Below are positions 11,701-31,991 of a stretch of 32,000 nt of DNA, in pieces. Where the stretch lies: NCBI GenBank assembly GCA_001430755.1, contig CP013062.1, forward strand, positions 1,216,027 to 1,248,026, read 5' to 3'. The stretch's first letter is position 1. The number at the start of each line of letters is the position of its first letter. Origin of the DNA: Candidatus Peribacter riflensis. Its GTDB lineage: Bacteria; Patescibacteriota; Gracilibacteria; Peribacterales; Peribacteraceae. Position numbers and translations under genes: made by a program. The notes below the pieces were generated by a model. That model was given only the letters and a program-made list of their open reading frames with translations, did not search any database and was not told the DNA's origin.

Positions 11701-12034
11701 TCCCGGGTTGAGCATCTCGCCGGAACATGCTGCAGGGCCGACCATTCAGGCAGGACAGATGGCACAGGGCGGACAAATACAGCCGGGTGGCAGTGCGGCA
11801 AGCTCGGGCGTCCCGTCACAGGGTGCCGGAACCGGGCCGGAGACCATCGTCTTCCCCGGGCAGCAGGGTGTAATTTCGCCGTTCGCGCAGCAATCACCTG
11901 CCTACTACGGTTCCGTCATTCCTCCCTTCGCTCCGGTGAGCGGACCTGTGGGGAGCACCGGACCGGCGGCCGTTGCGGTGATCGCGGCGGGGGCGGCGAG
12001 TGGGTGGGCGTGGATGCGGAGACGGCGCAGGTGA
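5720..12034 (+). CDS. Giant surface protein 2 (2104 aa): three FG-GAP/VCBS-type beta-propellers, 13 type-A and 2 type-B Cys-rich repeats, Pro/Gly/Ser spacer, TGP-type C-terminal anchor
   Basis: 6.3 kb ORF. A GTG at 5720 overlaps the upstream TGA (GTGA); an alternative ATG lies at 5729. N-terminal helix [15 protein letters not shown]. Many GD.DGDG.(P)DL.VG loops typical of FG-GAP. A FNADG/FNEDG/FDADG propeller. A tandem CG[ND]G..E..EQCE array. Tail [30 protein letters not shown]. Confidence 0.9.
   Translation: [2104 protein letters not shown]
5858..7099 (+). repeat. FG-GAP-type propeller 1 of protein 2, bracketed by Cys half-motifs
   Basis: [10 protein letters not shown] lies upstream. Multiple GD.DG.G.GDL.V loops follow. 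The downstream flank is ACPGDCNFC. Confidence 0.7.
7181..8470 (+). repeat. FG-GAP-type propeller 2 of protein 2, bracketed by Cys half-motifs
   Basis: [10 protein letters not shown] lies upstream. Loops [42 protein letters not shown] and [14 protein letters not shown]. The downstream flank is [12 protein letters not shown]. Confidence 0.7.
8828..10027 (+). other. Type-A Cys repeat split by an inserted ~370 aa FNADG/VCBS-like beta-propeller (protein 2)
   Basis: First half [15 protein letters not shown] at 8828-8872. Insert with [60 protein letters not shown] and [10 protein letters not shown]. Second half [14 protein letters not shown] at 9986-10027. Confidence 0.75.
10151..11671 (+). repeat. 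Thirteen tandem Cys-rich repeats (11 type A, then 2 type B), the main stalk of protein 2
   Basis: In-frame units of ~96-105 bp, e.g. [29 protein letters not shown] and [32 protein letters not shown]. The array ends with [30 protein letters not shown] and [30 protein letters not shown]. Confidence 0.85.
11942..12034 (+). other. Putative C-terminal sorting/anchor signal of protein 2
   Basis: [30 protein letters not shown] followed by the stop. It has three parts: a motif, an Ala/Gly-rich hydrophobic helix and a basic cluster. Confidence 0.6.

Positions 12035-31991: not shown

Follow-up and report, generated by a model that had tools for sequence, protein, structure and literature searches.

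Six of the seven giant proteins encoded in the 32,000-nucleotide stretch analysed here (the window), DNA of the ultra-small groundwater bacterium Candidatus Peribacter riflensis, carry the same C-terminal tail, which is a lineage-wide, unnamed, tripartite C-terminal signal. We consider the chances about even that this tail is a non-canonical sortase signal, [VAI]-G-x-T|G-P, of the Peregrinibacteria (class Peribacteria), and by analogy its motif may be read as a variant of the class E signal LAxTG in which Gly replaces Ala or Pro at position P3. The window makes up the final 32 kb of the genome record of this organism (CP013064.1, 1,248,112 bp) and is its published Cys-rich gene cluster, genes _1093 to _1102; in the corresponding publication (PMC4736985), large Cys-rich proteins of the extracellular space and 'a sortase A' are described, but no C-terminal tail is mentioned. 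Eight + strand genes were called in the window, seven of which encode giant proteins (g1 to g7). Translation of the + strand open reading frames (ORFs) confirmed the predicted tail at the ends of g2 to g7, with g1 lacking it, and the tail coordinates given in the original prediction were correct within a codon or two.

g1: 2076-5723, + strand, 1215-residue Cys-rich protein with RCC1 repeats and DUF11, the tail-less internal contrast
g2: 5720-12034, + strand, 2104-residue FG-GAP / DUF4215 surface protein whose N-terminal hydrophobic segment is a signal or anchor (gene _1095)
g2 tail: 11945-12034, + strand
g3: 12092-16879, + strand, 1595-residue DUF4215-repeat protein (gene _1096)
g3 tail: 16778-16879, + strand
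g4: 17005-20874, + strand, 1289-residue YVTN beta-propeller / DUF4215 protein (gene _1097)
g4 tail: 20782-20874, + strand
g5: 20893-25434, + strand, FG-GAP / DUF4215 protein of about 1510 residues (gene _1098)
g5 tail: 25339-25434, + strand
g6: 25438-29049, + strand, DUF4215-repeat protein (gene _1099; the published start at 25516 gives 1177 residues)
g6 tail: 28960-29049, + strand
g7: 29127-31991, + strand, 954-residue DUF4215-repeat protein (gene _1102), the last gene of the linearised chromosome
g7 tail: 31899-31991, + strand

The tails begin with GPVG[SA]TGPA or APAGETGPA, continue with [AS][VM]A[VLA][IM]AAGAA[AS]G[WFL]AW[MS] and close with RR[RK] and 0-7 further residues. A hand-made DNA pattern in IUPAC (International Union of Pure and Applied Chemistry) code, back-translated from P-x-G-x-T-G-P-(8)-G-A-x-x-G-x-x-W-x-R-R, matches exactly these six sites in the window, with an expectation of 0.00 matches (100 shuffles). 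When the tail cores are compared in pairs, 14 of the 15 pairs show more synonymous than non-synonymous codon changes; g2 and g3, for instance, differ by 14 synonymous and 6 non-synonymous changes among 27 codons, and for g4/g7 the counts are equal, with 6 of each kind. In a set of 113 distinct tail DNAs, each invariant position occupied by Gly, Pro, Thr or Ala is written with all four codons, and therefore the constraint acts on the peptide. This bears out the selection on the peptide that had been proposed from four differing codon strings for AAGAAAG, which match g3, g4, g5 and g6 exactly.

Blocks of high identity run through the tails of g4 and g5 (529 nt, 94% identity, 20329-20855 vs 24886-25412) and of g6 and g7 (1204 nt, 96% identity, 27838-29037 vs 30780-31976). 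Since these blocks include the tail, the six tails of the window correspond to about four independent copies; the 3' blocks of both pairs are products of recent recombination or duplication. In the pair g4/g5, identity reaches 99% over the 300 nt located 5' of the tail, whereas 12 of the 27 codons within the tail are different (8 of them by synonymous changes), and the exchanged tract seems to stop at the tail or to be older within it. The upstream extension S[VA][IV]P..P.GPVG, which had been described for four of the tails, was found in g2 to g5. Within it lies a further, degenerate motif copy, PP[TS]GP-VG[SA]TGP (20755-20790 in g4, 25312-25347 in g5, and also in g2 and g3), so that four of the six tails carry the [TS]-G-P unit as a tandem duplicate.

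A profile built from the six tails of the window was searched exhaustively against 1.84 billion representatives, which returned 444 cluster representatives at E<=1e-3, 57 of them at E<=1e-10. The tail is thus present in many other proteins; its absence from all of them had been named as a point against the prediction. The anatomy was counted on the best-scoring 150 of the 444 matches, by which conservation is somewhat inflated. In all of these 150 proteins (36-3171 residues) the tail sits at the extreme C-terminus, and the basic cluster is followed by 0-14 residues to the protein end. Relative to the Thr at position 0, the motif comprises P(-4) in 145, G(-2) in 144, T in 147, and G(+1) and P(+2) in all 150 matches; position -2 is never Pro among them. 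Within the helix, G(+11) and G(+15) are invariant (150/150 each) and W(+18) is present in 139, followed by R(+20) in 141. The distance from the Thr to the start of the basic cluster, RR[RK][RK] at +20 to +23, is exactly 20 residues in 141/150. The xGxTG core of the original prediction lies within this motif, but the invariant core is longer and reads P-x-G-x-T-G-P. The helix consists of 17 Ala/Gly-rich residues with a Kyte-Doolittle mean of 1.2-1.7, i.e. it is short and only moderately hydrophobic. The linker and the repeats adjacent to the tail diverge, with a mean column identity of 8%.

The DNA pattern was also run on the GTDB species-representative genomes (one per species), where it identified 111 stretches in 65 assemblies, 109 of which, from 63 assemblies, are true tails at ORF ends. 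The remaining two, L064 (Solirubrobacterales) and L087 (Archangium), were rejected as chance pattern matches in DNA of about 70% GC. Of the 63 tail-bearing assemblies, 61 are labelled Peribacteria, Peregrinibacteria or, loosely, Candidate Phyla Radiation (CPR). Two metagenome-assembled genomes (MAGs) bear other labels: L056 (JAIPIN010000002.1), assigned to 'Kiritimatiellales', encodes genuine tail proteins together with homologs of genes flanking the cluster of the window, and L092 (JBJHAW010000052.1), assigned to 'Planctomycetaceae', encodes genuine tail proteins as well; both are probably mis-binned Peregrinibacteria contigs in public MAGs. From this we conclude that, among species-representative genomes, the tail is confined to Peregrinibacteria. 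It occurs in several copies per genome, i.e. six in the window, 11 loci in MAG JABIBA01 and 4-5 loci each in JAHFJN01, VMGQ01 and CAZHON01.

The proteins carrying the tail share a common architecture. DUF4215 (the Cys-rich acidic repeat TIGR02232) is present in 66/67 tail proteins, and in the independent GTDB set the repeat core is found in 84 of 91 long tail ORFs, with a median of 98 residues between the last repeat and T-G-P. The N-terminal domains differ and include FG-GAP, several beta-propellers, DUF11, Fib_succ_major and Vgb_lyase. Because the repeats are near-universal and the N-terminal domains vary, the unit can be described as a variable head, a Cys-rich stalk, a Pro/Gln-rich linker and the tail; the near-constant coupling to DUF4215 repeats also means that the tail anchors one modular superfamily and not unrelated cargo. 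An N-terminal hydrophobic segment was identified in all six tail proteins of the window and, by a crude rule, in 57/95 Met-initiated matches, many of the others being metagenomic fragments. As a yardstick we used the eight attributes of tripartite sorting signals compiled by Haft (10.1101/2023.06.07.544157), the first six of which the tail displays: C-terminal location, multiple copies, a signature, a helix, 2-5 basic residues and an N-terminal signal. On the eighth attribute, the existence of homologs that lack the signal or bear a different one, the observation is that a DUF4215-like protein of the same genome, encoded by gene _1091, has a plain hydrophobic segment at its end and does not contain the motif. 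Public records name the tail proteins 'hypothetical', 'uncharacterized' or 'DUF4215 domain-containing'.

The tail has no name in Pfam or NCBIfam. Searches of the full proteins with Pfam and NCBIfam (June 2026) returned repeats and propellers only and no model for the tail, and our literature search returned no paper tying Peregrinibacteria or CPR to a non-canonical sorting motif. With isolated tails, the PEP-CTERM model TIGR02595 (cutoff 16 bits) scored three of the six at 18.3-20.5 bits and the other three at 14.3-14.8 (14.5 for full-length g3), whereas PF07589 (cutoff 20.7) gave 14-19 bits for five tails and no match for the sixth. These alignments begin at position 4/24 (NCBIfam) or 5/24 (Pfam) of the models, and the tails contain no P-E-P. 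Three isolated tails exceed the PEP-CTERM cutoff, but through the helix and the basic part only. The LPXTG model TIGR01167 (cutoff 15.9) scored the tails of the window at 13.9-15.8 bits and one relative at exactly 15.9, with alignments starting at model position 6 or later and a best E-value of 5.6e-4 among 85 tails. MYXO-CTERM (11.9-18.2 bits, cutoff 20; the tails have no Cys) and IPTL-CTERM (12-18 bits, cutoff 20.5) remained below their cutoffs, as did GVDTG_CTERM (NF058571; 10.5 and 13.4 bits, cutoff 29; best E-value 8e-4 among 85 tails), which aligns by the helix part alone (model positions 24/25-44). The matches of the 85 diverse tails were spread over 22 unrelated models with best E-values of about 1e-4. 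The matches to named models reflect a generic helix-plus-arginine similarity. In agreement with the original prediction, the tail, with its 444 representatives, rigid signature and restriction to one lineage, is therefore a tripartite C-terminal signal without a Pfam or NCBIfam name.

A comparison with known systems delimits it further. With LPXTG/sortase A (TIGR01167, PF00746) it shares the three-part design, T-G at the putative scissile bond and a genome with sortases and peptidoglycan, but its motif is [VAI]-G-x-T-G without L-P and its Thr-to-basic distance is 20 residues; this distance is longer in classical LPXTG signals, which also contain a spacer. PEP-CTERM and the spacer-less signals IPTL-, VPLPA- and PGF-CTERM resemble it in that the motif abuts a helix of about 17 residues, which is followed by an Arg cluster, and in their many copies per genome; the tail differs from PEP-CTERM/exosortase by the lack of P-E-P, and no exosortase was seen in the gene table of the genome. 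GVDTG_CTERM, a recently named domain, has an x-x-D-T-G signature superficially like V-G-D-T-G, but its motif region is not aligned and the score is below the cutoff, so the tail is not a member. The MYXO-CTERM/myxosortase system and Myxococcus TraA (PMC3325183; 10.1101/2023.06.07.544157) offer a likeness in overall design, with an N-terminal receptor-like domain, a Cys-rich stalk and a tripartite tag, and MYXO-CTERM is, like the tail, lineage-specific with dozens of copies per genome. The signature of the tail, however, has no invariant Cys, the gene table has no CPBP protease, and the stalk repeat of TraA (PA14 domain, Cys-rich stalk, MYXO-CTERM) is TIGR04201 and not TIGR02232/DUF4215. The LAXTG signal of class E sortases (SrtE1 of Streptomyces coelicolor, PMC5148588) is likewise tripartite, with T-G, a hydrophobic P4 and a small non-proline P3. 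Here the differences are Gly instead of Ala at P3, V/A/I instead of Leu at P4, the additional invariant Pro at -4 and +2, the GxxxG-W helix and the missing hydrophilic spacer.

A control scan for further tripartite C-termini, covering 0.87 Mb of Peregrinibacteria DNA, uncovered a small secreted acidic protein ending in PPLAPTG[AM]GAW..RR.

LAPTG protein: L045 2586-3146, - strand
LAPTG protein: L053 4710-5258, + strand

This protein has 48 homologs (P0250-P0297; Peregrinibacteria, Patescibacteria) of about 160-230 residues, and (P)LAPTG is kept in nearly all of them, the exceptions being one LPPTG and one LTPTG. The Thr is located 20 residues from RR in 33/45, without a spacer. P(-4), the hydrophobic (-3), the small (-2), T-G and the spacer-less geometry are common to this signal and the tail. 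Because (P)LAPTG is conserved in the homologs, a canonical signal of the LAxTG type, with the geometry of the tail, is in use in the lineage, which strengthens the LAXTG likeness that had been noted at the outset. By its sequence, the small LAPTG protein is probably a canonical sortase substrate.

The lineage also has its own clade of sortases of about 260 residues with one N-terminal membrane helix. They score 63-85 bits with PF04203 and above the cutoff of TIGR01076, but no more than 71 bits on every class model (cutoffs of at least 140), the best being class D with 49-71 bits vs 140-165; the score with the class E model NF033747 is far below its cutoff (30-53 vs 160 bits). The Peregrinibacteria-specific sortase clade fits no named sortase class. 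The P. riflensis member lies in a conserved TsaD, sortase, Lgt gene order.

P0166, P. riflensis clade sortase: about 568 kb of CP013064.1, 264 residues, in a TsaD-sortase-Lgt arrangement
TsaD, sortase and Lgt: L117 8882-11722 (CP013064.1, about 566.5-569.4 kb)
Conserved arrangement, with the clade sortase near a tail gene: L013 1417-3053, also in L014 and L054

His175, Cys246, Arg255 and Tyr158 are invariant in 84/84 clade sortases. In sequence alignments, Tyr158, which is part of a Y-P dipeptide, falls on Y128 of T. fusca SrtE and, gap-free, on F92 of C. perfringens SrtD (numbering checked via His109, Cys171 and Arg178), so that the sortases of the lineage have an invariant Tyr at the position of the class E S3 tyrosine, which belongs to the beta3/beta4 loop. 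This tyrosine has been proposed to let P3 accept a residue with a free amide (Ala) instead of Pro, and CpSrtD, with Phe at this position, leaves LAETG uncleaved (PMC5148588). By analogy, Gly at P3 would fit the same logic as Ala in class E. The AlphaFold2 model of a clade sortase shows the sortase fold (predicted local distance difference test score 84); a structural class assignment was abandoned, as Foldseek scores classes C, D and E alike. The membrane anchor of the clade (n=84) has a recurrent small-residue face, A10 in 58, A14 in 72, S/A17 in 53 and S21 in 73 sequences, with W25 in 78, and this face could make a conserved helix in the substrate compatible with a sortase, which we regard as a lead and not as evidence. 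The gene table of P. riflensis lists two more sortase-like genes (_264 and _350, annotated srtA; _350 has gene _349 as its neighbour) and a FemAB/MurN-like gene, and peptidoglycan synthesis is full in this organism (PMC4736985).

The original prediction had stated that no candidate processing enzyme lies in the window; indeed, tblastn with the sortase of the lineage gives no match there. Its suggested genome search for sorting enzymes turned up the sortases described above, but no entry for exosortase/EpsH, CPBP, CAAX or Abi among the genes tabulated for P. riflensis, a weak test at keyword level, and at the same level no convincing rhomboid, with one rhomboid match at E=0.0011. Around the 111 tail loci, no gene family recurs beyond background, and the families listed for 32 multi-pass ORFs in the neighbourhood of tail genes include no exosortase, CPBP or convincing rhomboid. 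The sole intramembrane protease family seen nearby is PrsW, located 1.5-3.9 kb from tail genes in two MAG loci; the ORF directly downstream of the tail genes in L024, L032 and L102, which we had considered as a further PrsW, is a CNNM/CBS transporter-type protein.

PrsW-family intramembrane metalloprotease: L052 2244-3908, + strand, 555 residues, about 10 helices
PrsW-family intramembrane metalloprotease: L077 3947-5296, + strand, 449 residues, about 10 helices

We infer the membrane retention, the cleavage site, the acting enzyme and the wall attachment of the tail proteins as follows. The precursor would be exported by Sec, driven by the N-terminal signal sequence, and would then be retained in the membrane by the tail, with the 17-residue Ala/Gly helix (invariant GxxxG, then Trp) as membrane helix, the Arg/Lys cluster as stop-transfer and T-G-P at the outer face. 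The sortase of the lineage-specific clade (264 residues in P. riflensis) would cut between Thr and Gly and transfer the protein to the peptidoglycan cross-bridge.

Several observations weigh against a sortase as the acting enzyme. In L013, L014 and L054, a tail gene has a clade sortase at a distance of 1-2 kb, but these 3/111 loci, with about 0.7 expected, represent only two independent arrangements and are not significant as evidence; ordinary genes reach comparable numbers (SecY 2, CNNM 3, LytR-CpsA-Psr (LCP) 5), and in P. riflensis no tail gene is located close to the clade sortase. The core recognised by characterised sortases is PXT, and about 10% of the known signals have Ala for Pro at P3, whereas Gly at P3 is without precedent among characterised sortase signals (PMC5148588). 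According to Haft (10.1101/2023.06.07.544157), the spacer-less signals described there all pair with multi-pass enzymes, and invariant helix residues indicate an intramembrane enzyme and not a tethered sortase; the tail shows both traits, the absence of a hydrophilic spacer and invariant helix residues. Moreover, protein pairs sharing nothing but the signal (attribute 7) were not clearly found, with DUF4215 in 66/67 proteins, and part of the conservation could stem from common descent of one C-terminal module.

These traits lead to the alternative that the tail is a sorting signal cut at or near T-G-P by a multi-pass intramembrane enzyme, which we consider rather improbable. The invariant GxxxG-W helix would dock inside the enzyme and the mature protein would receive a lipid or another anchor, on the models of exosortase, archaeosortase/PGF-CTERM, rhombosortase/GlyGly-CTERM and myxosortase. 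The missing motif-helix spacer and the invariant G(+11), G(+15) and W(+18), which Haft links to such enzymes, speak for it. Motif, 17 hydrophobic residues and basic cluster also match the PEP-CTERM-type geometry, to which the PEP-CTERM models align, and the lineage has a PrsW-family protease near tail genes in two loci. However, this adjacency (2/111) does not exceed the background, the LAPTG signal of the lineage is equally spacer-less, so that the geometry does not discriminate, and the P. riflensis gene table (at keyword level) and the neighbouring families listed contain no exosortase, CPBP or convincing rhomboid. An Ala/Gly-rich helix would suit a rhomboid-type protease; exosortase-type systems, on the other hand, typically occur in archaea and diderm bacteria, whereas the cells of the CPR are monoderm and have peptidoglycan.

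It is unlikely that the tail stays uncleaved and anchors the surface proteins of the DUF4215 superfamily in the membrane permanently by their C-terminus. In that case the GxxxG-W element would pack helices, either in oligomerisation or with a membrane partner, P-x-G-x-T-G-P would form a hinge or a helix cap where the tail meets the membrane surface, and the Arg/Lys cluster would act in stop-transfer and as a cytoplasmic tether. GxxxG is a classic helix-packing motif, G-P at the helix N-terminus is plausible as a cap, and the coupling to one repeat family (66/67 proteins, 84/91 ORFs) is as for a co-inherited module. A plain anchor, however, needs hydrophobicity alone, yet five extracellular residues and the 20-residue spacing are near-invariant beside a diverged linker; T-G and its context mirror the LAPTG signal, and a 17-residue Ala/Gly helix is short and weakly hydrophobic for proteins of 1000-3000 residues. 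That the similarity of the tails merely reflects chance, low-complexity Ala/Gly or recent duplication within the cluster we regard as practically impossible. The helix is compositionally simple and the near-identical g4/g5 and g6/g7 blocks include the tail, but six observed vs zero shuffled matches, 444 representatives and 109 tails in 63 other assemblies refute this explanation, as does a synonymous divergence near saturation with a conserved peptide.

Beside the sortase reading, for which the LAPTG signal and the clade sortases argue, we tentatively envisage the tail as a new CPR sorting system in which recognition occurs via the GxxxG-W helix, either by an intramembrane enzyme, for example the PrsW-family protease, or in part by helix-helix docking of a sortase. 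In the docking variant, which is no less speculative, the substrate helix would meet the anchor face A10-xxx-A14-xx-S17-xxx-S21 and W25 of the sortase. Such helix-dependent recognition might, to the same limited degree of confidence, mark the whole adhesin repertoire of epibiont-like cells for host attachment.

Peregrinibacteria belong to the CPR, ultra-small cells that are thought to be attached to other microbes and whose surface display is little known. With the tail as a sequence handle, the anchored surface proteins of this lineage can be listed in a simple way, and a profile search gathers hundreds of giant Cys-rich, integrin-like and beta-propeller proteins annotated as hypothetical; a curated hidden Markov model of the tail would improve the annotation of Peregrinibacteria genomes. 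If the sortase reading is true, it extends sortase specificity to Gly at P3 and provides a testable enzyme-substrate pair from an uncultured phylum, and the orthogonal motif could serve sortase-mediated ligation. Helix-dependent recognition, if true, would enlarge the small group of C-terminal sorting systems of prokaryotes by one.

Further neighbours of tail genes were recorded. A single-pass membrane protein of 170-230 residues without Pfam or NCBIfam match is encoded convergently at the 3' end of tail genes.

170-230-residue neighbour: L044 5684-6277, L059 4369-4881, L063 439-1035, L069 2053-2655, L073 2715-3413
170-230-residue neighbour, continued: L075 2688-3203, L085 4991-5503, L112 4872-5384, also L099 4201-4764

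The recurrent neighbour of 170-200 residues was rejected as a general enzyme, since its recurrence is the synteny of a single orthologous subfamily (tails IATSHPPAGxTGP...); the membrane protein may be a subfamily-specific partner. LCP ligases are located near tail genes in five loci (L010 3683-5227 and four others) and PMT-family protein O-mannosyltransferases in four (L021, L077, L084 and L107), and it is possible that both act on the Ser/Thr/Pro-rich linkers, by glycosylation or with wall polymers.

Within the cluster, g1 alone among the giant proteins has neither the tail nor a C-terminal helix of any kind. The stop codon of g1 and the GTG start codon of g2 overlap (5720-5723), which suggests that the two genes are translationally coupled, and g1 is perhaps a non-anchored partner of g2. 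For gene _1102 (g7), Table S2 of PMC4736985 gives 581 residues, yet its coordinates span 2865 nt (954 residues). The linearised circular chromosome ends at the end of the window (1,248,112), and the downstream neighbour of the cluster is thus the first gene of the record.

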